A DNA stretch of 64,000 bases, from positions 61,607,835 through 61,671,834 of the forward strand of contig NC_057726.1 of NCBI RefSeq assembly GCF_004010195.1, written 5' to 3'. The stretch comes from Chiloscyllium plagiosum. Taxonomy: Eukaryota. Numbering within the stretch: the stretch's first letter is position 1; each line of letters starts with the position of its first letter. Below, in pieces: positions 1 to 54,939 of this stretch. Position numbers and translations under genes: made by a program. Below the pieces are notes generated by a model that did not search any database, had not been told where the DNA came from, and was given only the letters and a program-made list of their open reading frames with translations.

Positions 1-1747
1 GACAAATGGGTTTCATAGGTAAAATGTTAAACATGACATGAAATATCACATGACTAATGTGTACTTCTCGTGGGAGTTTGTTAAGTCGGAGGTCCACTCC
101 TAACTCCCTTCTGAAACGTTTCCATATGAAGTGATCACAGTATCACTGCGTTCCAAAATCCTCCTTCGTCAGCACTCACCTTTTATCATTAGTTTAATTC
201 TGAAAATATCGCTTCAGTTCGCAGTACTGCAGCTCGTCATCTAAGCGATCCATTTCATGTAGCAACTGTTTATCCTGGGAGCTCTGAGTTTCATGCCACT
301 CTCATCTTTAACAACCTTCGAAAACTTGAGTTTTCAGGAGGAAGCACTGGATTGATAATTTTATGCATCTTTATTTCTCCACTCCAGAGCTGATGTGGAC
401 AGTTTGAGGTTTGGCTGAAGATGAGGGATATCAAGACTGGGGAGCACATTTTTAAAGTGAGAGGACAGAGATTTTTAAAAAAGACATGTGGGGCAAACGT
501 TTTTACCCGTGCGTAATGAAGTTCCTGACGACATGATGGATCTGGAGAAAATTACAACATTTAAAAGCAACGTTTTACTTTGACAAGTAAATGAATAGGA
601 AAAGTTTGGAGGGATACAGGCCAGGAGTGGGCAGGTGGGGCTACATTAGATTAGGATTACATTCAGCCTGGACTGGTAGCACCAAAAACTCTGTTTCCAG
701 GCTGTGTGACTCTCTGACTATGACATTATCGAGGAGAATAGCTTCACATCCTCCATACTACTGAAGTTCCTCAGCCCGCACTTCATTCCGATAAATATCT
801 TCCAACATCTTTACGGCCTTGACATCCCTCAGGATTGAGCATAAGACTCCAGGTTGAGACTAATTCATGTTCAAATTAGGGGTCTTATGGTTTATGTCCA
901 CTTGTCCACCCACCTTCAAAATATTATAAACACACCCAGAACTTTACTATCAATTAAATATTTCTTCTCTAGACAATCACTAAAACGTGAATCATTCCTT
1001 CTGCTTGCTTTTTAAAAAATACCATTATGAGCAAGGCAGATTTGTCCATCCCTAGTTACCCTTGAGGGAAGCCTCATTGCTCATTTTTATGTGTAGTAGG
1101 AAAGCTGGCAGGTCTTGCTATTTTCTCATCAACCTGTTTAGCGATGTGGTGATATAGTATTGGACCCTTGGTGATTTATATTGGGATCTGTCGGCTCAGA
1201 AGTGGGGACAATAATACTGCACCACAAGAACCCCTGAGCTGACAGGTGCTGTTTGGAAAAGCATGGGACAGAGTTTTGAAAGCTATAAGATTAAATTGTC
1301 CAGTGCAAACACTGACCATAGCTGTGAAATCTTTAAGATTGAAATTGACAGCTGGAATTGTTGAAGAAAGATTTTTCAGGTCAATTGTTTTCCCTCATGA
1401 AATCCCAGCAATTGCCGAGTTTTCACATGTAGGTATGACTGTTATCTATGCGTGGATATACAATAAAGGACTTCTGAAGGAATTAAAGATAGATACCACT
1501 CGAGCAGTGATGAATCTCCATAGACAGGTGAAAATGACTGTCGCTATTGTTCGTTGTGGTTCCCACAATTGCTACAGAAATTCCAAGGTGACAAACAAGC
1601 CACAAGACAATTTTCATCAGGTAATTGTTACTAAGGAAGAAAGGGCACAATGGCAGTTCAGATATTAAATAGATTGCATGCAAAGGTACATTTGGATTGA
1701 TGGAATTAAAATGCCGAGTATGGAGGCTTGATGATAAATATTAAATA
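1..1747. repeat. Near-identical segmental copy of the gene A upstream region (about 14004..14316 plus 14849..16277)
   Basis: Base-by-base match with only scattered substitutions and small indels. The ORF track shows twin ORFs at 1246..1668 and 15779..16201. Confidence 0.95.
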
Positions 1748-3135: not shown

Positions 3136-3786
3136 TTGGCTGTTGCTGTTTAGAAAACGACAGGCATTAAATGCGAATGATGCAAAAATAACAGTTTTGG
3201 GAACTGTTGCGCACTTGTGGATTCAGTGGAGTTCCTCCTGCCTATCTATCCAATGACCGAGAAGGTCGTATAGGAGATCATGTTTAGTGAATGGTTGTTT
3301 TTCGCTGAGCAGGAACAAGTTCCCTAACGGAGCATAAATTTTAGTTGTGAAACAAACTGCATGCAAACTAAATGTTGATATAGAAACGCACTAACAAGTG
3401 CAAATTTCAACATTAGAAAACTTGTCCTGAACTTAGTTTTCAACTTGCGACAAGTTGGAAATGGTTTTGGAAACTTTGCTCTGGGCGTGGAAAGCTCCCG
3501 ATGTTAGATTGGTTTTGCAATGGACTGGTCAGCAATTCTTCGATGTAACATTTCCTAGTAGATACAGATATTTCAAATAGTTGGTTCTTAGCCTGACTGC
3601 AATGAACGTCAATAATGATTGCAGCACGTTTTATGATATAAAACCAAATACTCCATAGTGCACCCAGTAGTATCATCCATCTTCCCAATATGTTTAAATT
3701 CTTGCTTTCTTTGCCACCTTTATGCCTGCATATAATGTAGAATGGTCTTGCAGTTTGGGTGTTGATGCTTTCTTGGAATCAGCTAT

Positions 3787-3834
3787 TTACAGATTGGCGT
3801 ACGTCAGATTGTTACCTTCGCTTCCTTTCTTGGT
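3787..3834 (-). CDS. Gene A exon 7, terminal cytoplasmic exon with ITIM LTYANL
   Basis: Acceptor ttactttcacag, TKKGSEGNNLTYANL*. The frame continues past the stop to a relic ITSM TLYAGI and a second stop at 3694. Paralog at 29475. Confidence 0.8.
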   Translation of the reverse strand, partial: TKKGSEGNNLTYANL

Positions 3835-6800
3835 CTGTGAAAGTAAAATTTAATATCACGCATTATCCCATCATTGACTCTTTGCTAAACGCAGTCAATT
3901 TTTTAAATAAAAAGACTTCAGGGGAATTTCCTTTCATCATTTGCCAACTTCAGATTGTAACAGAGTTTATAATTATTTTTAACTGATTTCTCTCCACTCT
4001 GTAGATCTGCAGTAAAAGTTCCTGTTATTCTGATTTAAACTTCTCATAAAATAAGCTAGAATATCAACATTGCCCATTAAAGAAGCACGTTTTTGCTTCA
4101 ATTAAAATAGCAAATGAATGAAATGCCGGTGTATTAAATGTGTTTGGAATGCTGATATTGCAAAACATCACTTTCAACACCCAATTTCTGAGCCGTGACA
4201 GCCATTGTGATGTGCTTACCGATTGGGGAGACCTCAAGTTGCAATTTACTACCACCTTTACCCCATTGTTGCTGATTTACCGAACTCTGGGACCCCGGCG
4301 AATATGGTGAGCCTTGGCCGAGATGGTCGGGCCCAGTACAGTATGGGTTAAACATCGGACCTTTCGATTCCTACAGTTTAGATTAGGACCAAACGTCATT
4401 GAACGTCTTTAAAAAATGGTAAAGCTTCACTTGATCATAGACGGTAATCTTCTTTGTTTGTCTGGGATTCTTATTTGTCTTGGTGCTGGATTCGACAGGG
4501 TAGGCATAAAGAGGTTTGTTCTGAGTTCAGTACTTTGTATGTAAAATCGGTATTTGCCACTCTTATCAGTTCAGTTGCTATCATTATTACTGCTAGTTCA
4601 TAAAAGGAAACAAGGATAATTTTCATTGCATTCTCACGCAAAACTCACAGTAAGATCTAGCTGTCCGTTTGATATCTCCCCTGATTTCTATTTCCGACAA
4701 AATCGGCAAAAGAAACATCGACATCGGTTTAATTTTGTCTTTTTTGTCATAGCATAACATGCAAACAAGGAATAAGAGCAAGGCACTAGGCCCTTAAATC
4801 CTGCTCCATCATTCAACAATGTCATGGCCGACTCTGTCAACGCTACATTCAGATTCCCCTCGATAATCTTTCATCCGCTCTATCATCGACAATTTATGTA
4901 CCCCGCCCTAACATGTTTAATGTTTCCGCATTTAGTGCCATTTGGGCTGGACGCTGCCGCAGGACATAGCAGGCAGAGCAGCGGTAGACGACCAGTACGT
5001 GGCCACCGCCATCCGACGCCTTAAAACGGCGGTGCTCGGACCGGACGTAGTGCACCAGTTGGAGGACGCTCAGGTGTGCGGTGGGATCCCGTCCGCGCTC
5101 ACCCCAGCCCGGCCGGAATTTCACATTGGCCCCAACGTCCCGTACTTCCCGCGGGAGCCTGTGCCCCACAACCTAAGCCGCCTCCGAAATTTTAACTTTG
5201 TTTCGTTTAGGGAAATAAAAAGAAGAGCCCTGTACAGACTGCTGCTGCACACCTTACTTGAAAGCTGCTAGCATGCAAATGAGGCAGGAGCAAAACATAC
5301 CTAGCACCTCAGAATAGCCAAGAAATCCTCAGAGTCTGAGAAAGACGCAGCCTTGATGCTGTTACCATCAAAAGGAGAGGAGGAAACTCTTGAGATACTC
5401 CATGCAGAAGAGATGGATGATGCTGCCCATGTTCAAGTCTGAGTCAGAGGAATTGGACCTGGGCAAAAACGTCCAAAAGAAGCCATAAGAAAAAGAACAG
5501 GCCTACATTCCCAGACTTGGTGGGGGAGGGATGTAGAGATTAGAACTAGAGCCAGGTGAATCTCATTGACAATGAGATCCTTAAATGGCCCAGGTTAAAA
5601 ACTCCAATGAGTGTGCCCTGGCTGACAGTTATGAACAAGAGCATTCCCCATCCACTTCTGTTTTGATTTAGTCCCTACCCTCCCCTTCACTGTTTTGATC
5701 ACACAGCACTGTCCCTTGATGTGAAGGGCAGTGCTTGTCACTGGTCACCCGGGTGTTTTCCTATCTTCCTGGTGGTGGAAATTGAATAAAGATTGGTGCA
5801 CTTTGTGTCTTCCACTGTGTCTCAAGAAAAAAAAAATAGTGCCATTTGAAGAAGGGATTTTCAAAGACTTACAACTCTACAACAGAAACGAAAAATCCTC
5901 ACCTCTGTCTTAAATAGACAATCATTTACTTTGAAACTTAGACTTCTACTTTTAGATTCTCCCACAAAAGCAAAGATCCTTTCAGCAACCAAATTTGTCA
6001 GGATTTTATATATTTCAATTAAGTCACCCCTAACTCTTCTAAACTCCAGAGGTATAGGCCTACCCAATGGTTTATAGCTTTTGAAAAGGAAGCGAGAAAT
6101 CAAAATTAACATAGGTCCCAAAGAGAAGGAGGTGGGGAACAAAATCATGGGGAACCAGGAAATGGTAGAATACACTAGCAGCATTCTAAATTATTAAGTA
6201 TCCAAGGGCAAAACGAGGAGTGGAATTAAAGAAAATAACTGTCACTGGAGAGGATGCGTCAGGGAAACTAATGGGGCAAAAGACTAATATGTCCTTTGGA
6301 CCTGATGCAGTACATTACACAATATCAAGGGAAGAAGATACAGTAGTGGATGCACCAATAGTAATCTCCCAGAAATCCTTAGATTCTGAAAGAAAAACTC
6401 CCAGAGGAGTAAAACTTTTCCAAACCAACATCTTTATATAGACAAGAAATAGTTATAAATAAGCTAGTTAGCGAACGCTTGAGTCAATTATAAAGGATGC
6501 AGAGTATTTCAAAATACATAATATCATCAGAGTCAGCTTGCCTTCATGAAGGGGTAAACATGCCTGACAAATTGACTGTATTTTTATTGAGGTAAAAGGA
6601 GGGCAGATGAAGCTGAAGCAGTAGATGCAATATTTTTGGATTTTCAGGAAACATTCACGAAAGTAGCACAAACTAGGTTACTTTATCAGATTAAAAACTC
6701 ATGGTGTTGCGGGCAGTACATTAACATAGATAGAGGATTGACGAAGTAACAGAAGACTGAGATTTGGGATAGGGTGGTAGGGCATTTTCAGAATGGAAAC

Positions 6801-9800
6801 CTGGAACTTCTGGTGTGACACAGGAATTAATACTGGGGTCACAAAGTTTCCAGTTATATATATTTATATATATTACATTTGGATGTAGCAAGTGCATGTA
6901 CAATGGCCGAGTTTATGGTTAACATTAAAGTAGGCTGGAGGCAGGATGATGAGAATTACACAAAAATCTTTAGAGGGATTTAGCCTGATTACGTGAATGG
7001 GCAAAGATTTGGCAGATGGGATATAATGTGGGAAAATGTGAGATTTATACACTTTGGCAGAATGAATGGAGGGGCCAAATATTCGTTAAATGCAGAAAGC
7101 CTGCAGAATGCAACGGAGCAGAGGAATTTTGGAGTCCCAATTCGCGAATCACAAAAAGCTAGCACGCATTTACAACAGGCAATAGAGAAGGCAAATGGAA
7201 TGCTGGCCTTTATTTCAGTGAGAATGGAATATAAAAAGCAGGGATATTTGCCAAAACTATACGAGGCACAAGCTAGGCCAATGTCCTTCCATCAAAAGGT
7301 TGACCAGTATTGTACGCAGTGATGTAGAATTGCTCTTATCAATCCCTTGCATTAATGAAATAGGGAGCTGTTCTTCTGATAACAATTCATGACAGTTTGT
7401 ATGATCAACATTTACTGAAATTAGCTTTGCATTCCAGATTTTTCGATTGAATTAATTCCCATTAGCTGCCCTAGTGAGATTTAAACCGATGTCCCCATGC
7501 TACTAACCTTGGCAACTGGATATCTGCCACTCGTTCTGTTTTATCAAGTCAAAAGTAGAGCATCCCCTTCCCTTACTCTACAGTGTCTTTTTTTAAACGA
7601 CTCCATTATCGCAATGACTAAGAGAAAGTGAGGACTGTAGATGCTGGAGGTCAGAGTCGAGAAGTGTGGCGGTGAAAAAGTACAGCAGGTCAACCAGCAT
7701 TGGAGGCTTAGGAGTGAAGATGTTTGCCGAAACGAACACTCTCCTGCTTCTGGGATGCTGCGTGACTTGCTGTGCTTTTCCAGCACTAAACTTTTCGACT
7801 CCATTATCATAATATTGATGTTGTATGAGAGTGACGTGGATATTTTATTCTTGACAATTCTGGCAGCATACCTGGGAATTGACAGTACTTTCTTCCGCGG
7901 GTCTGTGTTTGGAGAATCCTTTGTTGGTTTTCAATTTTACTGCAGCAGAGGCGGCATTTTCTTCAGCTGGTGCTTTTCTAAGCTAGAAAATAAGATATGA
8001 AATATCGAGAGAAGCGCATTTGATTTTACAGCCAGCCATTGGAACTGAACAATAGAATATTAACGTGCACACAGTAGTTAATCAAACAAGCTAGAAATTG
8101 CATTCTGTCAACTCTCAATGATTTGCATCTAATATCTCACCAATGTGTTGGGGAGTAATGTTCTAAATATGAAACCCAGAGCATTTAACGCATTTACCTA
8201 CAATTTAACATACAGCTGACGAAAAATAGACATTAATTAATTCCTCGTTTATCTCTAGCTCTCTTCAATCTTGTTGTAGCCTCGGCAGTTTCCTTATTCC
8301 ATAATTAACCCAGTCTATTAGAAGATCAGGCAGCGAAGCCTTTGGCTGTTCTCCTAATACTTTTGGAATCTTGTATTCTCTGACTGGCAACCAACAATTA
8401 GATTTCTGGCAAAAATTCTCCCCAAGCGCGTCTACAGTCATTATTTCCTCTCCCTCAGAAACTACGAAACAGCCTGCCCCCAGCACTGCTAACAGAGGAA
8501 TATAATGCAGAAAGGCCTGAGATTTTATGTCGCACACTACTTTAGGAAGATGTCGTGGTTTCGAGAGGATATAACAGAGATTTACGAGAAGGGTCCTAGC
8601 GTTCAGGGATTTCAATGATGTTTAGAAGCCTGGACATGATGCTTTACTTAGATCAGTTACGTTTAAGGGGAGATTTAACTTAAATGTCTAACATCTTGAT
8701 AAATTGTGATGGAATAAATTAGGATAAACAATTTTCATTGGCAGGATGTTTGAGATTTAGGCGACAAGATTCGTTTTCATTGGTAAATAATCTGGGGAGT
8801 ATGTTTGTTCTGCAGCCCAGTGAGCTGCCCGCAAACTGACAGAGTGACAGGAAGAATTCGATAGGAAGTTTCAAAAAGGGAACTGGATTGACCTGAAAAA
8901 TGTAATAAACAGGAGAATAGCACGAGACCGGAACAAATGACTTACTGCCTCATAGAGGCAGTAGAGGTGCTCGCTCTTCATCCCGGGCAATGTAATTCTC
9001 TGTTCTGTGAAATCAAAGTAATTTTGACTGAATGCAAAACTCATTGCTATCCTTTCCATGCACCCACCTCCCATTTGTTTGGAATATAATGAATATTGTC
9101 TCCTTACCGGTTGGACATTTTGATTTGCTTCCACCGAATTTCTTCCTCTGCCTAAGAGAAAGCAAAGTAATATAACGTGAGTGACAGAATCACTCATTCA
9201 ATGTCATGTCTTCGCTGCTAGAAACGTTTAATTTTTATATAAAGTTCAGAAATCTAGTTTGACAATGTTCAGCAGCACCAAGCTCGTTATGCTGTGTTTT
9301 ACCTGCTCACTGCTGTCATCGCGCTTTACCCAATGATGCAGAGTCAGTGACAGTGCAAGTGCAAGTCGGCGTCTTATTTAATCTACAAAATTAGAATGGA
9401 AATAAAATCTGCGGATGTGCATATCTGGTTGTGAGTTCGAAAATGCCCACTTAACCTTAATGCCAAATGCCAAAATCCATTCGAAACATTCGAAAAATGT
9501 TTCCTTCTCAGGAACTGGACCTCCACTGAACTATAATAGAGAACACTCAAAGTTTCGATTTCAGCACCATGGAGGTGAATAAACCGAGTGTATAGTTCGA
9601 ATAAGAAGGTGAAATATTTGCTTTTCAAATCCGGTTAGATCCTCATATCCTAAATTTAATGCCAGGCCTTTGATTTCTCACCTGCTCTCTATGCTTTTTA
9701 CACTGGGTCTGAGGAAATAAAAAGTATACAGTGAAATAAGAAAGATTCTTACCAGCTGATGCTTTCAATTTGAGTATCAAGAAAATGCTTATGATTAGTA

Positions 9801-12800
9801 CCATCGCCAATGCCCCTCCTGCACCTCCAATAATCATCGGACGATTAAAATCTTCACCTACAGAATCAACACGTGATGGAAGTGAACATGTGTGGAACAC
9901 AGGAGTGACATACACAGAGCAAAATGCACAGGATGATAAATTGCAAAGGTGTTTCTCAGGATAACCCAACTGTTAACCAAATTGGACAGTTTTAATTTTG
10001 TTGGGAAAACCTGTACAAGGTCCTTAATTCGCATCAGACCCAATGAATTGCAGCTCAGCTATGTATTTTATGGAGAAAACACATATAATGACTTAATGGT
10101 GTGAGAAACTTTATCTGCATAGGAACACTGTTTGCTATGAGTAAAGAAAGTTGTACTTGCTCATTCATAGAATCCGAGAAGAATCATAGAATCCCTATAG
10201 TGTGTAAACAGGTCATTTGGCCCAACAAGCCCACACCGATCCTCCGAAAAGTATTGCAGCCAGACCCTATTGCTCTCCATTTCCCCTGAATGATGCACGA
10301 AACCTACACATCCCTTAACGCTATGGGCAATTTAGTTTGGCCAATTCACCCAACTTGCACATCTTTGGACTGGGGGAAGAAACTGAAGCACCCGGAGGAA
10401 ACCTGCACAGACTCGGGGAGAATGTGCAAACTCCACAGTCGCCGGAGGCTGGAAGTGAAGCCAGTTTTTTGGTGAATCAACAGTGCGAACCACTGAGCCA
10501 CCATGCTGCCATTTAGGATCTTCCCCACACCACACACCCCAATCCCTATTAGATATATTTTCAATCTTACCTCGATTAAAGGTGTAGCTGACGCTGGTGG
10601 GCACCTTAAGACAAGCATGAGATACCAGACAGGTATAAACTGCACCACTCTGCACAGGCTGTGCATCTTCCAATGAACTAGTAACCTCATAAAGCCCATC
10701 CACGGTCTTGTTTTTCACAGTCTCCATTCCGGTATGAATTTTGAAACCATCTTTTAACCAAGAGATTCCTAAATCCTCTGGGTAAAATGCAGTCGTTTTG
10801 CATTCGAATTTCAAATAGTTCTCTGAAATCTCTTCTACGGGAACGATTTTCTGGAGTTTCGGAGGAACTATAACAGAAAATCAAACCTTTTAAAACATTA
10901 ATTTTCATTCTCTTTTTTTCACCCTTCACACTCGACCCGGTTCGGCACCCCATGTAATACTGTTCCATTACTAATGTGACAACAGTTTTCCTTGTTATTC
11001 TGTTTGAAACTTGGTATTTGCACTTATTTTTAAAAATGCTCAGCAAAATGTTTGGATCATTTGCAAACGATGCACAACGATCATAAACATGGGTAGAAAA
11101 ACTTTAATGAAATGCAGCTATCAGAATCGTCGGGGTTTAGCTTTATGTCAGTGAATTCGGTTTGATGAACTTTTTTTGGAAGACATTCTACCTGGAGGTA
11201 ACACACGAATTAGGAGCTGAAGTAGGACAGTCAATGGGTATCTCTCCATCCTGGAGGCTCCCTGCCTCCATTCCTGATGAAGGGCTTTGCCCTTTCCAAT
11301 CTAAACTTTGGTTTCCAGCATCTGCAGTCCTCACTTTTGCCCAGCCAATGGGCAGTCAATTCAGCTATTTGAGCCTGATCCAACAGTTAATATGATCTTG
11401 TCTGAGTTCTTTCTGTTCCTGATTGGCATTCCCGGTTTAGTATGAAACCTTTTTTTGAAGTATCAATTCTACATTACTCAAGTGAACTTGTGCCCTCTCC
11501 ATCTACAAGCGGTGTTTAGCTGCGAGCTGATCTCCTGTCATAACTCCCATTGCATAGAAAGAATAAGTTACAAACACGAGCGCAAACGTTTTTCGGCATG
11601 TTTGCTGCTGCCCTTCCTTCATTTTGCCTGCTATGCCTACATCAGAGAGTATCCATTTGGCGAACCGCAGAGGGCCAACCAGAGGCAATGGGCAACTTCA
11701 CTGCCTTACACGCTTTAGGATTGTGGATAGAATCCAGTATTGAGGGCAACGTCAACACTTGCTGTCTCACTGAATCATGTGATTCATTTGTTAAAATAAG
11801 CATTGGCATTTCAAACATGTTAGTATTGGGAAAATGCGCTCCCGAAACACTAATCAATTCCACTCTTGAACTTACTCTGCCATTCACTTAGGTTATGGTT
11901 GAACTGTACCTCAACTCCATTTGTCCGGTTTTATTCTATTTCCTTTATCCCCAGGATTAAATTTACTTGATGTCGATCTCCAAGTTTGAAGGATTTGCGA
12001 CAGAATAGTTTGATCGGCAATTTGGGGTCAAAACATTGTCTTGTGTCTGTTGAATATTAATGGCTGTGGGTATGTTTTCATTCACCTTAATTTGACGTGA
12101 ATGCATATTGTCGATGCTGATAAGATGGTCTTTATTATCTTGTATCAAAGCAAGAGCTGTTGGAGCTGTTAAAATTATTCTTATGAAAGATTATGACCTG
12201 AAATGTTAATTGTGTTTTTGATCAACAAGGAAGTTCAAAGGTATCAGAGCGGACAGAAAAATGCAGTTGAGACCATAATCAGATCAGCCATAATGTTGAT
12301 GAGTGGCTGAGTACACTCAAGGGATGAATGGTCTACTCTTGCTTCTAATTCTTATGATCGTATTACCTATGTAGATGTTCAGACATGTTTCAAATAATTT
12401 CTGTTCATATTCCAACTTTTCAAAATCCGTAGCACATTGTTTTGTTTTCTTTTTGATTCTATTGTCACAGTTTAGTACCGTTATTTTGGTTTGAAGTAAA
12501 CTGTGCATTTTGCCTCATGATACAAAAGACAGAAAATGCTAGAGAAACTGAGTAGGTCTGGCAGCATAAAAACATAATAAATAGTTGCAGGGGTAGGCCA
12601 TCTGACTCGCTAAGCCTGCTCTGCCATTCAATAAGCTTATCGCTTTCTTGGACTCAGCTCCACTTACCCGCCCTCTCACCTTTATTTTCTTTAATGTTCA
12701 AAAATCTAAGTATTTTTGCCTTAAAAACATTCATCGATATAGGTAGCTCCAGTGCTTCACTGGAAAGGGAATTCCTCAGATTCACAATCCTTTGAGTGAA

Positions 12801-13931
12801 GAAGTTGGACCTCAACTTAGTCCTAAATCTGCTTCCCCTAATTTTGAGGCTGTGCGTGAAGTGAAAGGAGAGTTAACGTTTCCAGGTCCAGTGACCTTTC
12901 TACAGAAACGTTCTGAAGAAGGATCGTTGAATGCTAAACGGTAGCGCACACAGATGCTGCCAGACCTGCTGAGTTTTTCCAGCAATTTCTAGTTTTGTTT
13001 CAGATTTCCAGAATGCATTTTTTTTTATTTTATCTTACTGCATGAATTAATGTCATCCTAAAATTTGAACAGTTATCCCATTTCACTATCTTGACGCAAA
13101 ATCAACTGCTTCTGCACCAAAAAGGCACTCATTGAATTAATAACACTGCGCAATGTCATGATCACAATGAGCAATGGAATTGATCTTGAGAAATGGTGTA
13201 AGACGTACGAAAGCTAATCAACAGCCGTTGTACAGCGAGGTCGTTGCTACAATGTGAAGCAAATACGCTGTAACCGAGTTTTCTCTAATTATTAAAGCTC
13301 AGATCACATGAATTGCATAAAACAGCTGAAGAGTTGTTTGTCCTGGGTGCAGTGCCACTTACCGCACACTGTCAGCAATGAGCCGCTTTCTGCTCCATGA
13401 GTGGCTTGCTGATGCTTTATTTTACAATGATACATTCCAGAGTCTGCAAAAGTGACGTTGAGAATATGAAGCGAGCCTCTTCCTTTCTGGACATGAAAAC
13501 GCTTTCTGTTGTCTGGTTCCAGAAACGATTCCTCGTTGTGTCTCCACCAAAATATTTCAGGAACATGTTCAAATATTGGAAATGTGCAGAACATGGAAAC
13601 ATTGTCACCTCTGGCCGCCTCTAAGAGTTTGGGAAACTGATGTACTTTGCTCGAAGTTACTTTAGTGACGACTGAAAAAAAAGTAAAACCATGATATAGC
13701 TGTAGACAGCTGACATGAAATAACATCGGGAGGAGTAAAATCTGCAAACAATTGAGAACAACCGCACGCATTAAATTGGAGAAGCAAGACATCAAACTTT
13801 GCAATTTATGGAAGCTGTAAATATGAAATAAAATCTAGGTTACTCTCAAAGGACAATTCGTAACATATAGGAGTACCTGGCCAAGCCATACGCAGAAGAG
13901 CCATGAACAGAACCGCTGCTCTGACCAACAT
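3787..13931 (-). CDS. Gene A: IgSF type I membrane receptor (leader-V(J)-C1-TM-cytoplasmic ITIM), SIRP-like / VJ-C1 family, 322 aa; join(13877..13931,13363..13671,10571..10867,9753..9857,9108..9151,7872..7982,3787..3834)
   Basis: Seven exons with GT-AG boundaries and compatible phases (1,1,1,1,0,0) total 969 nt and are open to TAA. They encode a signal peptide, V-set and C1-set Cys/Trp motifs, a hydrophobic TM and a terminal LTYANL. Six of the seven exons have a same-phase paralog of similar length in gene B. Confidence 0.85.
4925..5265 (+). mobile_element. Tx1/L1-clade non-LTR retrotransposon ORF2 fragment
   Basis: GC-rich island encoding LTPARPEFHIGP..REPVPHNLSRL..LYRLLLHTL, recalled as typical of the Tx1 ORF2 C-terminal region. 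Confidence 0.6.
5645..5836 (+). mobile_element. Tx1-like 3' UTR with poly(A) tail
   Basis: Similar to 39060..39220. AATAAA is followed by an A-run. Confidence 0.55.
6180..7280 (+). mobile_element. Degenerate CR1-type LINE RT fragment
   Basis: Remnants of the LDFQKAF, GVPQGSVLG and KANGMLAFI motifs with many stops. Confidence 0.75.
7620..7800. mobile_element. Short hairpin element derived from a Penelope terminal repeat
   Basis: Starts gagaaagtgaggactg, has internal inverted repeats, and is flanked by direct repeat cgactccattatc. Confidence 0.65.
7872..7982 (-). CDS. Gene A exon 6, cytoplasmic with degenerate ITIM/ITSM
   Basis: Acceptor ttattttctag, donor CAG|gtatgc, 111 nt, phase 0/0. LRKAPAEENAASAAVKLKTNKGFSKHRPAEESTVNSQ aligns without gaps to exon 7. 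Confidence 0.7.
9108..9151 (-). CDS. Gene A exon 5, membrane-proximal cytoplasmic
   Basis: Acceptor ttctcttag, donor CCG|gtaagg, 44 nt, RGRNSVEANQNVQP. A 44-nt paralog lies at 38038..38081. Confidence 0.85.
9753..9857 (-). CDS. Gene A exon 4, transmembrane (uncharged, GxxxG-rich)
   Basis: Acceptor ttctgtag, donor G|gtaaga, 105 nt. EDFNRPMIIGGAGGALAMVLIISIFLILKLKASA. Confidence 0.9.
10185..10512 (-). mobile_element. HE1-like tRNA-derived SINE in the gene A C1-TM intron
   Basis: Minus strand begins ggcagcatggtggctcagtggtt (A box); body homologous to 42585..42899. Confidence 0.85.
10571..10867 (-). CDS. Gene A exon 3, Ig C1-set domain
   Basis: Acceptor ttctgttatag, donor G|gtaaga, 297 nt. Motifs FECKTTAFYPEDLGISWLKDG..DGLYEVTSSL..YTCLVSH. 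Confidence 0.95.
13363..13671 (-). CDS. Gene A exon 2, Ig V-type domain with J-like G strand
   Basis: Acceptor ttttttcag, donor G|gtaagt, 309 nt. Motifs VHQFP..VSMFC..IFWWR..SLHILNVTFADSGMYHC..SGSLLTV. Confidence 0.95.
13877..13931 (-). CDS. Gene A exon 1, signal peptide MLVRAAVLFMALLRMAWP
   Basis: ATG at 13931, 55 nt, phase-1 donor CAG|gtactc. Same length as the gene B leader and similar in sequence. Confidence 0.85.
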
Positions 13932-14396
13932 TTTGCAAATGGAATATAAGCGTGGTCTACTTGATGTAAACACGGGCCGTATTCTGAGTGGCTAGTGTGG
14001 AGCGACAAATGGGTTTCATAGGTAAAATGTTAAACATGACATGAAATATCACATGACTAATGTGTACTTCTCGTGGGAGTTTGTTAAGTCGGAGGTCCAC
14101 TCCTAATTCCCTTCTGAAACGTTTCCGTATGAAGTGATCACAGTATCACTGCGTTCCAAAATCCTCCTTCGTCAGCACTCACCTTTTATCATTAGTTTAA
14201 TTCTGAAAATATCGCTTCAGTTCGCAGTACTGTAGCTCGTCATCTAAGCGATCCATTTCATGTAGCAACTGTTTATCCTGGGAGCTCTGAGTTTCATGCC
14301 ACTCTCATCTTTAACAATTTGCAATTTATGGAAGCTGTAAATATGAAATAAAATCTAGGTTACTCTCAAAGGACAATTCGTAACATATAGGAGTAC

Positions 14397-14451
14397 CTGG
14401 CCAAGCCATACGCAGAAGAGCCATGAACAGAACCGCTGCTCTGACCAACAT
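14397..14451 (-). CDS. Identical second copy of the gene A signal-peptide exon (alternative exon 1)
   Basis: Identical to 13877..13931 including the donor, at an offset of 520 bp. Confidence 0.6.
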
Positions 14452-20715: not shown

Positions 20716-21575
20716 TGTTTTTCCTAAGAGGCATAGGTTGTTTGGTTGAGAAGGCTAACTTCGTGGGGTGCAAATGAAAGTGAGGATGGACATAACAGGA
20801 GGGATTGCCAAATTTTTATATCATCCCCATATGCAGCAGTGGTGCTAGACAATTGGACAACAATAATGCTCAGCCACTCTGACCTCATCCCACAATGCAC
20901 ACCCACTGCCATGTGCTACCACATGCACATTCTATACCTGTCTCTCCATCAGCACTACCTCCCATCCATCGCAATCTCCAGTTTTATTTTATTCTTTGTT
21001 TCATGCACACATTTAATAATAATCAATTCTTTTTCCTTTCAGTTGTTAAGGATACGGGTCCCCGTCTGGATTCGTCCTCCGCTTCTTCTTCTCGTTGAAT
21101 TCATCACTTCTTCTAATTCCACAACTTGCACTGTATTCACGTAGCCTCTGGTTATTCATTACATCAACTAGCATCAGTTACCCTGAATGGCTGCTTTGCG
21201 AGGCAGAGTGATGCCAAAATGTTGAGCTTCATTCCTGCACTGCCTGAAGTCACCGTGAAGGAATTTCCTTCTGACCCTCTGCCCTTGGCTGAAAAGTAGT
21301 GACCCTCAGATTGAAACGACCATCAATCATCTCTCTCTAATGAGAGAGCAGCCCGATAGTCTGGTAAAACTATGGTGAATTTTAGGTTTACACTTTTAGA
21401 CCTTCCTGCCAGATGCTGAAGAATTAACGCTCAGCAAAAAAAAACATCACGCTTTATGATCTCACTTCAATGAATTGCAGGCTGAACCTAATGTTGAACT
21501 CTGGGGTAGGAGTTCCCATGTTGCTCCATTGAGTCTTTCTCGGACACCCATGCGCCTACTCACTCTGGACACTGG
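20716..21575. repeat. Segment of about 860 bp duplicated at 53748..54605
   Basis: Colinear high-identity match. Twin ORFs at 20746..21144 and 53778..54038. Confidence 0.9.
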
Positions 21576-28185: not shown

Positions 28186-29333
28186 CATTAGTGTATATGT
28201 ACATGTTACTTAAATAGTATTAAAATGTATTTTGTGAAATTTACAGATACAACGGAAAAAAATGCAATTTTATCTGGACTTGAGCTATTGAGTTTCATGG
28301 TCCTGAATGTTAATAAACCACAAGCATTTTTATTTTATTGTGCCTATTATGTGTGTCCAACATCCTTCTCTTGATAATTACTTAGCACAATGGGGGAAAT
28401 GAGTTGAGTTCCCTCTTAAAAGAAATGTGAGAATTAAATGCTTTGCATTAGTCATTGGCATGGACATCACTGGCTAAGTTTATATTTATTATCCATCCCA
28501 AATCACCCTTGCAGATTGTGGTGAGCTGACTTTTGATTGCTTCAGTCCTTTGTGTGTAAGTACTCCCATACTATTGTTCAGAGGACAGTCAAGGATGTTA
28601 ATTCAGGAAGAAATGAGGATGTAATGCAGGCTGGTGTGCGGTTTGGAGAGGAGCATCTGCTGCTCTTGTCCTTCCAGATGGTCAAGGTCATGGGACTAAA
28701 AGTTGCTGTTGGAGGTGTCTTGGAGAGTTGCTATAATGCAACTTGCAGATAGTCCCTGTAAATCAAACGTGGAGGAATTGAATGTAGAAAGTATTGGATT
28801 GGATGCCTTTCACATAGGCTGCTTCACCTTGGATGGTGTTGAGCTTCTTGGCTGATAGATATGCACTCATGCAGGCAAATAGAGACTATTTCATGATGCT
28901 CCTGACTTATGCCTTATAGATGATGAAAAGGCATTCACATGTCACGAAGCAAATTACTGGCTGCATAAATCTTTGCCTTTCAATTGTTCTTGCAATGCCA
29001 GTATTTATTTAGAGTGCTGATAATGTTTTATAATGAGATTCATTTAAGTCATGTAAGAGCAGAGGCACCAGTCTCGAATAAGCATACAAAGAACCTTACA
29101 CAGTAAAATGAAGAGTTGTATTAGAGAACTTACGTACAAATGTACCATTAAACAATGAAAGTGAAAATTACCACTTCACCCTCCCTTCTTACCATGCACG
29201 AGTAATGTTACATATCATTTCAATAGTTAGCCACTATAAATGAAACAGTGATAGATATCAATTGTATGGTATATGACTGGATATCCTCGGCTTCCAACCA
29301 TAAATAATTCACTACTTCTGTTTTTCTAGATTC

Positions 29334-29475
29334 TCAGCTTCTTTTATTCGTTGCCAGCTTTATACCTGCATATACTGTGCATTTAGTCCAGCGATATAGG
29401 TGGTGATTTGTGTTTTGGAATTAGCAAGTTTCAAGTGGCATAAGCCAAATTGTCATCTCGGCTTCCTTGTTTAGT
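29334..29475 (-). CDS. Gene B terminal exon: coding to TGA at 29431 (TKQGSRDDNLAYAT*), followed by a frameshifted ITIM/ITSM relic
   Basis: Same acceptor as gene A exon 7 (ttactttcacag). A 1-nt deletion lies inside the ITIM, and relic CTVYAGIKLATNKRS* sits in another frame. Confidence 0.7.
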
Positions 29476-35400: not shown

Positions 35401-38400
35401 TTTGACCATTGTTCACATAGATGTCTTCATTTCCTGTGAAACTGTCTGTTGTCTCTGTTTGTGAGTGCAAATATTTACTTTGGGATGTCTCTTTTTTGTA
35501 TACTTAATAATGGTCTTACAATCAAATTTTATATTTTTAGCTAGTTTGCTCCCCCCCCCATTTTATCAATTTTTTGATGCATTCTAATATCATATTTAAC
35601 TTATTGAGTGAGTCATGGATGATGTTCCTGACTGAGTTTTTATTATTTAACTAACTAAATTTTGCTCAGCATCTTGAATTGGGTCTTTAAATCCTTCCCA
35701 CTGTGCATTTAATTATCAGCATAATAAAGTTATATAATCAACCTATTTTCACTGCATTTTGATATAATTGATATTGTTTAAGTTAATGATTCATGCTCAT
35801 GATTGGAACTTTGAAACCTAATATGGAATTCAATGGTTTTGTGGTAATTATTTCCTGGCAGACTTAGTAATTAATAAAACATTATAATTATAATTAATAA
35901 TAATTATGATAGCTAGATAGATTAGTTATCTATGATAACTTCATCCAGAGGCAGCTGTAAAATGCATTGCTGCATGAAGTGATCACAAAAAACTCTGCAA
36001 ACTTCTCTTCCAGATTGTCCTTTAAAAAATTTAATTGACACTCCCGATGTGAAGGTTAAATTTACCCAGGACAAATACATTTCCTTTGTGTCAAACTGCA
36101 AAGGTTTAGTTCTATGTTTGGTCCACAATACACTTTCTGTCATGTGTCCTAAAAACTGCTCCAGCTATCATTTTCTGACTCCTGATATTTCCATTTACCA
36201 CGGAGTGTGATTCTGTTTTGTGATTTTCTTTCCAATGTTGCTGCAACAGGAGTGATTCCAGCCTTGGGTGACTGCCTGTGTGGAGTTTGCACATTCAACC
36301 CATGTCTGCGTGGGTTTCCTCTGGGCGATCTGGTTTCCTTCCACAGTCCAAAGATGTGCGGGTCAGGTGGATTGGCCATTCTAAATTGCCCATAATATTA
36401 GGAGAATTAGTCAGAGGGAAATGGGTCTGGGTGGGTTAATCTTCGGAGGGTCGGTGTGGACTGGTTTGGCCGATTAGGGAATCTAATCTAAAAAAAATCC
36501 TTCTTATGAGAGCCACCTTCCACTTTTACAATGTTGAATTCCTCTTGAAATGTGTGTACCTTGGAATATTTATTCCCCAACCTTGGTCACCTTGTAGTCA
36601 TATCTCAACAGTAGCGATCCAATCAATTTACAATACCTATATTTGTGTAATGAACACACCTATTTTCTTGAAGGTGCTTCATGCATTTAGAAGAAAAGAG
36701 CCTTTAATTCCACTACTTTGCTTCTTATTCTTGCATTGACTTTATTCACAGATGCAGAACTGAAGCTAACTTACAGTCCCATCCTGTTTTTTTTTTAACT
36801 ACATCTCTCCATTGTTCTATTGTCTTCATGTCTTATTCTATCTCTTTGGATTGCTCAATCTCGGTTCACCATAACTGTCTCTCTCTACTACTTTAATACC
36901 TGACGACAGCTCTCGTAATTGCAATTGTCCCACTGAGTTTAAGTAGCGCCCACATAAATGAAATGGCTTCCTGTTTCGCAAATGATCAAAACCCTTTTGT
37001 CCAACAGCATTGCTTGAACCATATGTCGAAGTCTCTAATCTGCTGTATGCTATGTCAACTGGTAACAGGCCAGAGATTATTACCTGATAATTTGTGCACT
37101 GTTAATTTGGGCATTTTAAAACTCAGCAGAGCATTATTCCTTGCATTGGTTTCTATGACAACGAGATCGTCCCATCTCACTACAGGTTCCTTCAAGGTCA
37201 TGGGGAGATGACCTTAACCTTGGAACAAGGCATGTCACACAGCATTTCAAGTTCCCAGTGATGATGATCATAATTTGGCCGGGTTGTGCTATGCAAGTGT
37301 TTCAATTTAGCAACTAAGCACCTGGGAATTTCCTATTTTTTAAGCTGTTTGAATTATAAAGATTAGAATGAGAAGTCTCTTCTTTAAATTAGCTGCCTGA
37401 AAGCATGTCCTAGTTAATTACCAGAGACAGAAAAGTGCTTTTCTGGCAGGGTAAGGAAGTAGACATTGAGTTTTCTTCATTCAGAATGCGTACACAATAA
37501 GAATGTAACTGCCAGAAGAGAGTGCAGAAGAGATCTACTAGAATGGTGTCAGGAATGGGGAACTTCATTAATCCTGGGTAGACTAGACAATTTATGATTG
37601 AATTGCGCAGGGCGGAAAAAACCAAAGGGACGATTGTTTCAAGTTTTTTACAATTACGAGAGATTTCAATAAAGCAAAAATGATTTCAATTGTTGATCTG
37701 TCAGCATGCAGAGGATAAATTTACAATTACTGATAGAATAACTATGGGATTACGAAGATTTATTTTGTGGAAACCTCTATAGTACTTTTGAATATCTGGC
37801 AGAAGCAAAGTTAGTAGAAATTAAAAAAAAATGAAGAAAAGATTACCTAAAATGCAAAAATACAGAGCTAGGTACAAAGAGTGAGGAGCTGGGCTGATTG
37901 ATTAGTTATTTTCTAAGACCTACCCAACAGTAACAGTCTCCTTTAGTCTATGATTCAATAAATGTTCTCAGCTGATTGCAATACTTCTTGCTATTCCTTC
38001 ATAACTGTTCTTCTATGAAGAAAGATTATGCCCTTACCAGCTGTTGAGTTTCATCCACTTCTACAGAATGTTTCCTAACACCTAAAGGAAAGAAAAGAAA
38101 TCTATACTGAATGTAAAATATAATAACACAATTATAGCAATGAATAAATGAATATATTGGAGCTGATTCAGAGGAGGCTTACTCGATTGACACTTGGAAA
38201 TAACTGGTTGTTTCATGAGGATAAGTTCAATAGACTCGGTTTCTTTCCACTGGAGTTTGGAACAATAAGAGGTGATCTGATTGCAGTGTATCAGTTACTG
38301 AACTATTTGACAAGATGGACATAGAAAGAATACTTTCTTTTGTGGATGAATCCAGAACAATGGGATACAGTGTACCAATTAGAGATTGTCCTTTAGAGAC

Positions 38401-41400
38401 AGAAATGTGGAAGGTTTCTTTTATCACAGAAAATTGTGCCAGTTTGGAACTCCCTGCTCCAGAAGGTGATCGTTGAATATTTTAAAGGCAGTAGTGCTTG
38501 GATTCCTGTTAGACAAGGGAAATGAATGGTTACTGGGGGATAGTTGGGAATGTGGAATACCAAACACGAACTGATCAGTGATAACCTTATTGAGTGATGG
38601 TAGGTCTGGAGCAGCTGATTGGTCTACTTGTGCTTTTAACTCATATATACTGTATGCTTGTGGGAATAATGTATTGAGTGCACAAGCATCAATAGGGATC
38701 TGCCTTCCAAAGATCTAGAGCTCCGTGTTGAGTACATTGTCTTCCCAAATCCTCCCTTGGTACTAATCACAACAGAGTAGACTCTTCCTCTTGTGGGAGA
38801 GTGAATTGACAGTTTAGTTTGCATTGCAAAGTTACTTTGGACATAACAATTGGGAGTAAAGTGAACCAGATTGGCATAGTGATTGCAACCAGGTTGATAT
38901 TATTGACTGTGTGATCCTCGATTGGGGTTGTAACCCTGGCTGACCAATATAAACAGGAGATTCTGGATGCCCCTGGAGAAGGAAAACTTGGTGTCTACCA
39001 GTAACCTCGAGGTTTTTATGACGAGGTTGGCACCATAGTGTGTAGAGTGTTTTATTCCCCCCTCTGATTCTATTTTGATTTAATCTCTACCCTTCCTTTC
39101 AATTTTTCAATCATGTAGGAGCATGTCCCTAAGGAGCATTGGCGACTTGGGTGCTTTTTCTTCCTGGTGGTGGAATATGAATAATGTTTTATTCACTCGT
39201 TGTTTCTTCACTGTGTCCTGCACATATATGCACACAACATGGGTGCTGGGGAGAAATAAGCACGACTGCTGTTTGGTGGTAGCATGGAGGATTGAGGAAA
39301 AATATATAAACAGGGGACTCAGGATCTCCTCACTTCATGGACTGACTCTGGGCTGGATGGCAACAGCCAGTTTACCGTACACTTGTAAATAAAGGGCGAT
39401 TTGGTGACAGTATACCAGCGTCAGTGTCGTTATTTCAGTTAACTATTCTGATATCACTTTAAAATGAGTACACTGGCACTGCTACTTTTAGAACTGGATT
39501 GGGGTGGGAGTAATTTGTTTACAAAATTGAGGAAATAGTTTGAATGAGGTTTATGTTGTCATGTTGAATTGTCAAACTGCTTCTAACATCAACTTCATTC
39601 TTTAAAGATGTAGAAAGGTGTTCACTATTCCTGCATAGTTATTCACTATTCATCTGCTCTTTATGTCTTCTAACAAGTAAAATTGCCTCTTGGAAGATGA
39701 AACATATTCAGCAGAATAACAAAGTAGAAGTTCATAGAAGTTCATAGAATATGCACATCTGGTATATGAATGCTGGTATACTGTCACCAAATATCATTGG
39801 GACTTGGAAACTAAAAATATTCAGCAAAATAACAAACATTCTTACCAGCTGATGCCTTTAACTCAAGTCTTGTTAAAATGATTATCAATAGTAAAATTGC
39901 CAGAATGCCACCAGCCCATCTAGAGATCAGCAGATAATTGAGATCTTTACCTATAGGATTAATAACACTTGAATGAGAAACTGCAGAGTACAGCGTGATT
40001 TCGACACAGAGAATCATGATTCAGACACAGGAAGGCGATCTGCAAAATAGTATCCCAGGACGATCACATCCAATAAACATCAATAGAGACTGATCCTTTT
40101 TATTTCAATGGGTAGTATGTGTAAAACGATTATAAGGTGTATCACATGACATATCAGTCACAATCCCACAATACAACTTATGGAGGGAACAATTCCATAG
40201 AGATTGAGGAATCTTCACTCCTGGTCATTTCTTAAGAGGAAAAACAGTTACATATTATTGATATCATCGTGTTAGCATTACACATGATTGATATCATCGT
40301 GTTAGCCCTTTATTTACATTGAAAGCACCAGCTGGAAAAAATCATCAGATTTAACACTTCCTGTAACTTTTGTCAATTAATATATGCATCTTGCTTTCAT
40401 TTAACTCGTTTAACATGACAAAGCATCCAATGCTCTCCAGAGGACTGTTATCAAGCAGTCCAGCCACATAAGGCACATTAGAACAAATGGATCAGAAACA
40501 GAAACTCCTGGAGCAAATCAGCTGGTCCAGCAGCATCTGTGGAGAGAGAAACTGATTAAATAATTTGAGTCGAGTGGCCCTTCTTTAGAACTGATAGCAG
40601 CTAGGAAAAAGTGGTATGTATGTTGAAGACAAATATTGGGGAATGGAGAGTGGAGGTGGAGAAAGGGGTGAGCAGAAAGGCAGAGATGGAGCCAAAAGAG
40701 AGAGAACAATAAAAAAGGATGGATGACAACATGCCAGGAAAATAAAAAGCTGACATTGGTGATCATAACTAGATGAAAATTGGTTGACTGTGCTGAAAGC
40801 AGCTCATGTCATTGCCAGGATCTGCAGTGTGAGTGTCGGTAAAGGATATGAAAGTAGTATTCAGGCACTAAAATTATTGAGCTCGTCATTGAGTTCTGAA
40901 GGCTGCAATATCCCCAAGTGGAAAATGAAATGCTGCTCTTCCAGGTTGCACTGAGGCTTGATGCATCACTGCAGCAGGTCTGAGACAGGAATGATAGCCA
41001 GAGAACATGATGGTATGCTGAAGTGGCAGCAACTGGAAACTAATTTTTAAGGACAGAATGAAAGTTTGTTTACAAAGCTGTTGCCTGGTCTGCATTCTGT
41101 CTCAGCAGTGTATAGGAGACAACATTGTGAGCTGTGAATATAATATATAGGTAATCACTGCTTCACTTGGAAGCTGTGTCTGGATTCGAGTGTGAGGAGG
41201 AAGGAAGTAAATGGGCTACCACAATATTGAACCTACTTCTACTTTCTTCCCAAAATCTAGCAACAGGAATGACAGGGCAGAGCTGCTGTTCCTGCCACAC
41301 AGACTTAATCTCTTAATACCTTGATTCAACATTTTATCCCATTCTCAGCTCAGTTCCCATTAATATCCATGATTTATGTGAAACGTTGCATCTGTTTAGA

Positions 41401-44400
41401 GTTTCCGGTTTGTGGGCAGCAACTGTCTCATCTTCATTTTGGATGTACAATGCGTTTACACATCCACCTTCTGTCATGGTGGCTTTATGGTTCCCCACTT
41501 GAACTGTCCCTATTCACCAACCCTCCACTATCTGGCCAAGGTTGTACTCACTTTGAAGAACTTCTCATTTTCCTCCTCTCACCTTCTTCAGAGCAATGGT
41601 TTGGCTATAGATACCTTCATGGTCTTCAGTTCTGTCTGTCTCCTTGTACGGTACATGGAACTTCCCTTATCCTTATCCCATTCAGGTCCTGCCCCACAAC
41701 TCTTTCCCTGTTTCATCGCTAATTCATCAGTGCTTCTTCTGACTCTCATCAAAAACTGGAAAAATTGATTAATTTCACTTTCAATTTCTACGCTGCTCCT
41801 ACCTTCTCCTAGTTCATCTCTGACTCCTCCCTTCCCTTCCTCGACTTTCTGTTTCTTTTTCTGGGTATATGTCTGGCCACAAATTTTCATTACAAACCCA
41901 TCAACTTCCACAGTTACATGGGCAATCAATCCTCACATTGCAAATCCTGTAAAGACGCCTTTCCATTCCAAGTTCTCTATTTGCATCACATCTGTTCTGA
42001 TGATACTACCTTCAGTTCACAGAAATTCCCACTTTTTTTCTCATCCAAGGATTCTCTGCGACATGTTTAAGAGGGCCTTCAGCCATTTCTGATCCATCTC
42101 CCATTCTTCTGCCCTCACTCATCTTCATCCACAATATCGATAGGGTCCTCTTTGTCAACTTCCAGCTCACCTCCCCCAAAGTCACCATTTCTGACACCTC
42201 CCATGGGATACCACCACCAGACACACATGCCTTTCCCCTCCTTTGCCACTAATTTGCCACCATTGCCCACTCATCCTCCACTGCCAACACACCCTTACAC
42301 TCCCACGTCACCTTGCCATGCAGAAGGTGCAACACTTTCCCGTTTACTTTCTCCATCCTCACCATCTAAAGTCTCAGATGCAGCTTGCAGGTAGGGCACT
42401 GATATACCTGCACTTTACTCAATCTAGTCTCCTGTATTCATTGCTCATAATGTACTCACCTCTACATTGGGGAGACAAAACACAGATTGGCTTGCAGAAC
42501 ACCAGTGTTCTGGCTGCAAAAATGTCCCCTGAGCTTCCAATTGCTTGCCGCATCAACAGATTACCATGGTCCCAGCCAACATCTGGGCGGCACGGTGGCA
42601 CAGTGGTTAGCACTGCTGCCTCACAGCGCCAGAGACCCGGGTTCAATTCCCGCCTCAGGCGACTGACTGTGTGGAGTTTGCACATTTGCCCCGTGTCCGC
42701 GCGGGTTTCCTCCGGGTACTCCGGTTTCCTCCCACAGTCTAAAGATGTGCACGTTAGGTGAATTGACCATGCTAAATTGCCCCTAGTGTTAGGTAAGGGG
42801 TAAATGTAGGAGTATGGGTGGGTTGCGCTTCGGCGGGGTGGTGTGGATTTGTTGGGCCGAAGGGCCTGTTTCCACACTGTAAGTAGTCTAATCTAATCTC
42901 TGTCTCGGGCGTGCTGCAGTACTCCAGTGAAGCTCAGTGCAAGCTGGAAGAACAGCACCTCATTTTCCACGTGGGGATAATTTGTCTTCAGACTCAATAT
43001 ACAGTTCAATAATTTTAGGATCTGACCATTTATTCCATGAATTTTACACTCCCCCACACCCCAAGCCCAGACATGACATGAGCTGCTTTCAACATAGCCA
43101 ACCGAAGTTCATCTACTTACGGGCCCCATCATCAACTTTTCTTCCTCCGTGGCATGTTATCATCCATCCCTTTGCCTGCCAAACTGTCATTGTATCTGGG
43201 TTCCATCTCCACCTATCTGTTCTCTCCCTACCTCCCAACCCAAACATGTCTTCAGCAAAAATACCACCCTTTCTTAGCTGCTATCAGTTCTGAGAAATGG
43301 TCACTGAACTCAAAATATTAACTCTGCTTTCTCTCCAGAGATGCTGGCAGGTTTTCTGAGTTTCTCCAGCTTTTTCTCTTTTTTTCCAACATCCACAGTT
43401 CTTTGTTTTGTCTGGATGGCAGGTTATAACTACTGGAGTGCCATAAGTTTTGGTCCTTTGACCCCAGCTATTTACAGTCTACATTAACGACTTGGAAAGA
43501 GAGAGCGAAGGCCCTATAGGCAAATTTGCGGAAGACACAAAAATAGGCAGTATGGTAAATTGCAATGATGAAATAAGAACCTTACAAATGAATATAGATA
43601 GGTAAGGAGAGTGGGCCAATATGTGGCAGATAAATGGCTAGGTGGCTGATTGTGAAGTCATGCATTTGGCTCAGAAAAATGGGAAAACGACCTATTATCT
43701 TAATGGGTAGAGACTTCATGGTGCTCTGGTGCAGATGGATTTCGGTGTACTCATTAATGAGTCAGAGAAAACTGGCATGAGGTACAGTAAATACTAAAGA
43801 AAGCGAATGGAATTTTGGCTTTTATAGCTTCAGGAAAATAATATAAAGGTAGGGAAGTATTGTTGCAACAGTACAAGGTATTGTTGAGACCACGCCTGGA
43901 GTTTTGTGCACAGTCTTGGACCTCTTACTTTAGGAAAGATGTAATGGCATTGGAGAAAGTTCAGAGGAGGTTCATGGATTGATCCCAGACATGAGAAGTT
44001 TGTCATATGAAGAGAGATTGGACAATTTAGACTTATACTTACTGGAATTTCGCAGAATGAGGGGAGATCAAATTGGGATATTCAAGATGATAAAAGGCAT
44101 AGATAAAATAGACGTGGAGCAAATAGAGTCATAGAGATGTACAGCTCAGAAACAGATTCTTCGGTTCAACTCGTCCATGTTGACCAGATATCCCAACTCA
44201 ATCTGTTCCCACCTGCCTGCAGCTGGCCCATATCCCTCCAAACCCATCCTATTCATAAATTTATCCAGATGCCTTTTACATGTTGCAATCGTACTAGCCT
44301 CCACTACTTCCTCTGGCAGCTCATTCCATATACATAACATGCTCTGCATGAAAACGCTTCCCCTTAGGTCTCTTTTATATCTTTTCCCTCTCACCCTAAT

Positions 44401-54605: not shown

Positions 54606-54939
54606 CTGGTTTGGCCTTTTAGTTCAATCTTTTCATTGAGAATTTTCAACTTGACATCAACTGCCTTATTTTCTCTGCTCTCATTCTATACTCTAATCTG
54701 TGTCCCCCTGAATTTGCTGCACTACATTCTCCAAATTCTAACTATGAATTTTTTAAATCGTATTTTCTATTAAGAAGAGTGCTGTTGTTGTCTATGTGGT
54801 AAAGGCTGCGCACTAACTTTCTGATACACCCTCTGTTCGAACTCTGGATCATGGTCCTACAGAACATCAAACAGTTATTTTTGGGATGGTTATTAACCTC
54901 ATCTGCTCTTGAGATTTCTTTCCACAGTTCAGGATGGAA

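Follow-up and report, generated by a model that had tools for sequence, protein, structure and literature searches.

The bamboo shark Chiloscyllium plagiosum carries, within the 64,000-nucleotide stretch of contig NC_057726.1 analysed here (the window), an inhibitory-type receptor gene of the Ig superfamily, gene A, whose cytoplasmic tail ends at a TAA directly behind an ITIM. This raises the question of whether the stop is real, whether it marks an allele or a decaying duplicate, and what it leaves of the signalling capacity of the receptor. The answer we prefer, with a probability of about one half, is that the TAA is a real nonsense change present on some bamboo-shark chromosomes, most likely a segregating allele of a V-C1-TM inhibitory-type gene, which has kept its ectodomain, has probably lost nearly all recruitment of SHP-1/SHP-2 and appears to be under relaxed constraint.

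In gene A a single V exon and a single C1 exon precede the transmembrane (TM) exon, and by this layout it is a V-C1-TM receptor (see table). The six exons that precede the stop all have open frames, GT-AG borders and compatible phases, and the gene is thus unlike an old pseudogene. The acceptor 5' of the last exon (3834-3694, minus) ends ...TTTCACAG, in phase 0; as this exon matches family tails (23 of the query proteins, best E 3e-22), it is not a chance reading frame. Behind the TM, LTYANL conforms to the ITIM consensus S/I/V/L-x-Y-x-x-I/V/L given in the introduction of PMC8631942, and a translated TxYxxV/I 3' of it is found in the read-through form and not in the TAA form, where TLYAGI lies behind the stop. 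The initial annotation of this DNA had placed the exon and its stop at the same positions, which we recovered exactly on the minus strand. The frame beyond the TAA, which it had called clean, is indeed open through TLYAGI to the original stop at 3696-3694 (minus), and the 31 residues past the TAA are identical to the intact tail of the RefSeq protein XP_043563363.1.

Features of genes A and B and of the second upstream copy in the window (minus strand throughout).
Feature	Position	Strand	Basis
Gene A, signal-peptide exon; second copy starts at 14451 within a 530-bp tandem duplication	13877..13931	-	sequence comparison
Gene A, Ig V-set exon	13363..13671	-	Pfam PF07686, E 4.8e-12; 100% identical to XP_043563363.1
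Gene A, Ig C1-set exon	10571..10867	-	Pfam PF07654, E 1e-10
Gene A, transmembrane exon, hydrophobic stretch without charged residue	9753..9857	-	translation
Gene A, cytoplasmic exon c1	9108..9151	-	exon mapping
Gene A, cytoplasmic exon c2, ending TVNSQ (TVYSQ in intact copy)	7872..7982	-	comparison with RefSeq tail
Decayed tail exon in last intron of gene A: no acceptor AG, in-frame TGA, two tyrosines	4431..4538	-	42% identity, E 0.007, to a stretch of exon size in Scyliorhinus P0027
Gene A, last coding exon, phase 0: ITIM, TAA, untranslated former ITSM segment	3694..3834	-	translation; junction as in XP_043563363.1 and homologs
ITIM LTYANL, final six residues of TAA form (LTYATL in read-through form)	3790..3807	-	translation, run X2, RefSeq tail
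Premature TAA; CAA (Gln) in read-through form	3787..3789	-	run X2 bubble
ITSM-consensus TLYAGI, outside translated part of TAA form	3721..3738	-	translation
Putative 3' UTR, cDNA piece, ends short of stop	3330..3658	-	run X9
Second copy of gene A upstream region; inferred start of intact copy A' beyond window	1..1747	-	matches 14524-16280
Gene B, upstream exons: SP 49265-49211, V 48658-48353, C1 44883-44590, TM 39950-39846, c1 38081-38038	38038..49265	-	Pfam, sequence comparison
Gene B, last exon with frameshift; TGA in frame at 29433-29431, within the ITIM	29332..29475	-	translation, alignment

XP_043563363.1 ('tyrosine-protein phosphatase non-receptor type substrate 1-like', Chiloscyllium plagiosum) is identical to gene A in the V exon (100%) and the first C1, and continues with a second C1 and the intact tail, both absent from the window. 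In this second part it differs from gene A at 5/98, 0/14, 5/37 and 2/46, in sum 12/195 codons; the differences of the tail include Tyr for Asn (TVYSQ) and Gln for the gene A stop. Tail exons and junctions are alike in the two, whereas the model has a spurious N-terminus, lacks a signal peptide and a TM, and has the second C1 and the intact tail of another copy, A', skipping any V and TM exons of that copy. Judged from these comparisons, XP_043563363.1 is a chimera in which gene A has been joined to the copy that follows it; its SIRP-like V-C1-C1 layout is an artefact, and it conceals the stop because its tail was taken from another copy. The second copy of the gene A upstream region differs from the first by 46 substitutions in 1737 aligned bases (2.65%), plus indels, and begins at a contig edge directly beside a 500-N gap (1748-2247); together with the RefSeq model, this places A' after gene A in the assembly. 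At the protein level A and A' are separated by 12 changes in about 452 non-synonymous sites (2.66%), which is the non-coding rate, and no purifying selection is therefore visible between them. We favour A' being the other allele, assembled in tandem, over its being a copy-number-variable paralog.

Four public sequencing runs, from 24 candidates, were compared with window 3300-4300, and two of these, from two studies, cover 3789; both hold the letter of the window, at the very base for which the initial annotation had advised a look at raw reads. In run X1 a single contig spans 3300-3970 at depth 19.3 and shows TAA alone, although contigs may drop variants and the missing CAA is no proof of absence; the same run resolves a nearby 1:1 bubble just upstream (depths 11.4/11.7). 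Run X2 gave two 74-base contigs with a common flank over 3759-3832, one with TAA at depth 3.5 and one with CAA at 3.3, about 1:1, depth being uncalibrated in these runs and two copies indistinguishable from four. Relative to the window, the CAA branch has changes at 3789, 3793, 3794 and 3802, and its translation, LTYATLQ, is that of the RefSeq tail. With TAA alone in X1 and TAA plus CAA in X2, the stop is real, is not private to the assembly and is variable: one of the two animals showed the CAA form and the other did not. The read-through form in the same species, in the RefSeq tail and in run X2, bears out two proposals of the initial annotation, namely a recent nonsense change that removed the terminal tyrosine motif and its possible status as an allele. 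A search for carpet-shark orthologs of the tail returned, among 122 candidates, only the query itself.

Of the six differences that separate the X2 branches, four lie within 14 bases. Random placement over the 833 covered bases would produce this with a probability of about 1.6e-4, which suggests that the clustered changes are one event. No gene-conversion donor for them was found in the window, the best other match having 7 mismatches in 22. Over 3300-3758 the CAA and TAA forms of X2 show 0 differences (chance 4e-6 at 2.65%), and given this identical 3' flank the haplotypes are mosaic and the X2 CAA form need not be the A' of the reference. As a separate observation, the clustered changes give rise to a 7-base direct repeat whose other half lies 15 bases upstream, which may be a trace of template switching.

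A third run, X9, contains a 374-base cDNA piece over 3330-3658. The template-switch adaptor at its 3658 end indicates minus-strand sense, and the end string is listed as a cDNA 5' primer in the single-cell paper 10.1101/2021.09.27.461747. The piece ends short of the stop and is putatively a sense transcript of the 3' UTR, from either the TAA or the CAA form. At 3330 it has a 20-base loose end, for which the best match in the window has 5 mismatches and which may be chimeric or derive from downstream sequence that is unplaced. Between 3694 and the gap, no canonical poly(A) signal was found. About 2% of the raw RNA run X21 gave 0 reads, and the RNA reads at hand reach neither the stop nor the splice junction of the last exon.

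The codon that was lost can be approached through a chondrichthyan V-C1-TM family with members in Heterodontus, Scyliorhinus, Mobula, Heptranchias and Callorhinchus, which RefSeq names SIRP-like, NCR3LG1-like or tapasin-related. Of 34 named family proteins, 20 have a terminal ITIM (six species, isoforms included, and thus not independent), and the residue that follows it is Q in 18/20, H in 2/20 and K in 0/20. With Q prevailing in these tails and CAA in the read-through form of X2, the ancestral codon is Gln, not Lys. The initial annotation had set the TAA against an AAA (Lys) in gene B (49265-29332, minus), a paralog of gene A with exons about 70% identical; this alignment failed, as the pairing needs a 1-base gap, the gene B exon is frameshifted and the family residue is Gln. 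In its own frame the last exon of gene B reads TKQGSRDDNLAYAT and then TGA: one base is lost at the ITIM and two extra bases follow later, the in-frame end is LAYAT, an ITSM-like TVYAGI stands in another frame, and a complete ITIM is lacking. On account of the frameshift, gene B was rejected as an intact comparator for the stop.

CAA has become TAA, along with three neighbouring changes within 14 bp, and 31 residues are cut off. Under the reading we prefer, the reference animal would be heterozygous, its two haplotypes, about 2.6% divergent, assembled in series across the gap 1748-2247, and the chimeric RefSeq model would follow from this serial assembly. The TAA haplotype, under relaxed constraint, would take part in the ordinary birth-and-death decay of the cluster, for which the dead tail exon at 4538-4431 and the frameshifted gene B exon nearby speak. 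On the other side, 2.6% is a high divergence for alleles, and the near-neutral dN also fits diversifying selection. As a separate observation, the decayed exon in the last intron has homologs that are coding in the family members of catshark and horn shark.

Another possible explanation, to which we give tentative standing, is that gene A is a young decaying tandem duplicate whose neighbour A' keeps the intact tail, with copy number varying among animals. Such a neighbour would account for the second upstream copy at window base 1747 and for a RefSeq model that runs into a second C1 and an intact tail; a divergence of 2.65% with indels suits paralogs, protein divergence at a neutral rate suits a released duplicate, and the family expands by lineage-specific duplication in the V-domain tree described below. 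The 1:1 bubble of X2 is as compatible with two paralogs as with two alleles. However, a fixed intact paralog is expected in X1, and the absence of CAA from that run, which resolved the neighbouring bubble, argues against one, so that this explanation requires A' to be absent or converted in X1. Moreover, the second copy starts exactly at the contig edge by the 500-N gap, a common sign of a separately assembled haplotype. The published Chiloscyllium plagiosum assembly is described in PMC7677710 as based on paired-end, mate-pair, stLFR and Hi-C data.

As to what the stop means for the protein, nonsense-mediated decay usually spares transcripts whose stop lies in the last coding exon, and gene A, if expressed, would hence yield a truncated protein. 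The intact form resembles BTLA, PD-1 and SIRP-alpha in having an ITIM followed by an ITSM 23 residues apart and Ala at pY+1, and by this analogy bivalent SHP1/2 binding would be expected of it. Such binding by ITIM/ITSM receptors is shown in PMC8631942, according to which mutating either the ITIM or the ITSM tyrosine of BTLA abolished SHP1 and SHP2 binding (section 10), SHP2 was not recruited by PD-1 lacking the ITSM tyrosine (section 7) and Ala at pY+1, which the gene A ITIM has, favours SHP1 (abstract). The SH2 domains of SHP2 are stated in PMC8113834 to need a hydrophobic pY+5, a non-hydrophobic residue lowering affinity about 100-fold; pY+5 of the terminal ITIM is L, I or F in 20/20 named family tails. 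The TAA removes pY+4/pY+5 of the remaining ITIM and ends the tail at pY+3. Gene A has further lost the tyrosine of the conserved TVYSQ (now TVNSQ) and, by decay, the upstream two-tyrosine exon, and the TAA form retains one of the three tail tyrosines of the intact copy.

To judge from mammalian receptors, one ITIM ending at pY+3 would provide at best weak monovalent SH2 binding. With the second tyrosine and pY+5 lost, and with the precedent of BTLA and PD-1, near-null signalling is likely and is favoured over mild attenuation. The attenuated receptor of the initial annotation consequently stands as regards the removal of the terminal motif, while 'attenuated' probably understates the loss. Against a near-null state, single-ITIM inhibitors exist, and 3/20 named family tails are naturally without the terminal motif. 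Fc-gamma-RIIB, which signals through SHIP, is an inhibitory receptor of this single-ITIM kind. Both partners are named in the introduction of PMC8631942. As its TM has no charged residue, the TAA form has not been turned into an activating receptor.

It is also conceivable, though we consider it unlikely, that the TAA form is a selected functional variant, either a single-ITIM inhibitor that is attenuated, as the initial annotation had it, or a decoy that binds the ligand and blunts the use of the receptor by pathogens. The stop occurs in the assembly and again in each of the two runs that cover it, which come from two studies, and is thus not rare, the ectodomain, the TM and the ITIM with Ala at pY+1 are intact, and short-tailed Arg-TM members exist beside ITIM-tailed ones, as in paired receptors under pathogen pressure. 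Nevertheless, these occurrences come from three samples, drift within a redundant cluster accounts for them as well, and a TM without charged residue leaves no conversion to an activating receptor. More doubtful is an extended version, in which two old haplotypes, about 2.6% divergent, are maintained and the TAA haplotype, the common one, would be a selected decoy incapable of signalling, reduced from three tail tyrosines to one by a single clustered event, in an undescribed paired-receptor family; if true, a balanced null polymorphism in the style of KIR and Siglec would already be present in cartilaginous fish. A sequencing or assembly error at 3789 is effectively refuted, for even though the reference differs from every covering run at 3386 (3/3) and 4255 (2/2), possible reference errors or private variants, both runs covering 3789, from two studies, hold TAA, one of them at depth 19.3 and with no alternative.

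The wider family shares with gene A the domain order, the exon phases and the terminal LTYA[A/T]L-Q/H motif; its long members have up to six tail tyrosines, in contrast to one in gene A. A later terminal tyrosine motif follows the ITIM in 17/20 named tails, four of the 17 being strict ITSMs (Thr). A wide search added 66 unnamed family-sized proteins, 19 with a comparable ITIM near the end, two of which (2/19) have no later tyrosine. None of the 100 family-sized proteins ends on this terminal ITIM; P0056, of the Arg-TM type, ends on an ITIM-like hexamer. Arg-TM members with short tails (P0006, P0007, P0010, P0020 and P0021) make up 5/24 matches and stand beside ITIM-tailed members, so that similar ectodomains were found with ITIM tails or with charged-TM short tails, as expected of a paired family. 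The V domains of Scyliorhinus P0006 and of the ITIM-tailed P0027, a model without TM, group at 99/96, and in the V-domain tree (25 rows; 7/22 inner branches strongly supported) the family expands separately in each lineage. The short-tailed Arg-TM members are suggestive of an undescribed paired-receptor system in sharks and rays. Among the titles and abstract openings listed by a literature search, with subscription papers lying outside it, no match for this receptor family or variant was found.

The likeness to BTLA, PD-1 and SIRP-alpha is one of tail motifs and no demonstration of orthology, the shark ectodomain being V-C1. SIRP-alpha, after which RefSeq named the protein, has a V-C1-C1 ectodomain, unlike gene A with its one V and one C1 (the second RefSeq C1 lies outside the window), and a PDB sequence search gave no SIRP among the best 60 of 65 matches, all of them weak generic Ig matches. 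The ectodomain of B7-H6/NCR3LG1 consists of V + C1, an architecture common with gene A (Pfam V-set, C1-set) that is no proof of orthology. Mammalian paired-receptor clusters (KIR, LILR, Siglec) harbour tail-truncating or null variants and copy-number variation, and gene A resembles them in the probably segregating loss of an inhibitory motif and in possible copy-number variation within an Ig-superfamily cluster; however, their variants have been tested functionally, and their activating derivatives gain a charged TM residue, which the TM of gene A lacks. Tail loss is common in the shark family and in paired receptors generally, and the loss of ITIM/ITSM to a stop in clustered immune receptors is a familiar pattern, of which gene A is a new instance and not a new mechanism. 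What the locus adds is a natural loss-of-tail variant from a family of shark receptors that is unstudied, and a chimeric RefSeq model conceals it; its short and long tails form a natural mutant pair for asking about SHP-1/2 signalling in an easily bred model shark, and the pair A/A' flags a probable haplotype duplication in the reference.

Some minor observations concern the remainder of the window. The V exon of gene B ends in the J-like GGGTQLTV and that of gene A in ESGSLLTV. Non-rearranging VJ-C1 genes (UrIg, PRARP), a family described in PMC10751288, were considered by way of a germline-joined VJ exon with C1 and of linkage to the MHC paralogon. The gene B TM exon has an Arg near its outer end, faintly reminiscent of the activating members, and a c2 exon of gene B was looked for in the window and not found. 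An 860-bp segment is repeated at 92.7% (20714-21575 and 53748-54609), with one copy upstream of each gene; the second copy adjoins the other 500-N gap, and the segment may be a conserved upstream element or a mobile element. In gene A, the tandem duplication at window 13798-14849 (93.5% identity) doubles the signal-peptide exon, with an ATG at 13931 and another at 14451. Finally, 100 bases after exon c1, window 8946-9006 (minus) holds a short open stretch that contains a single tyrosine and has a GTAAGT donor; it is not in the RefSeq tail and may be a cryptic or relic exon.
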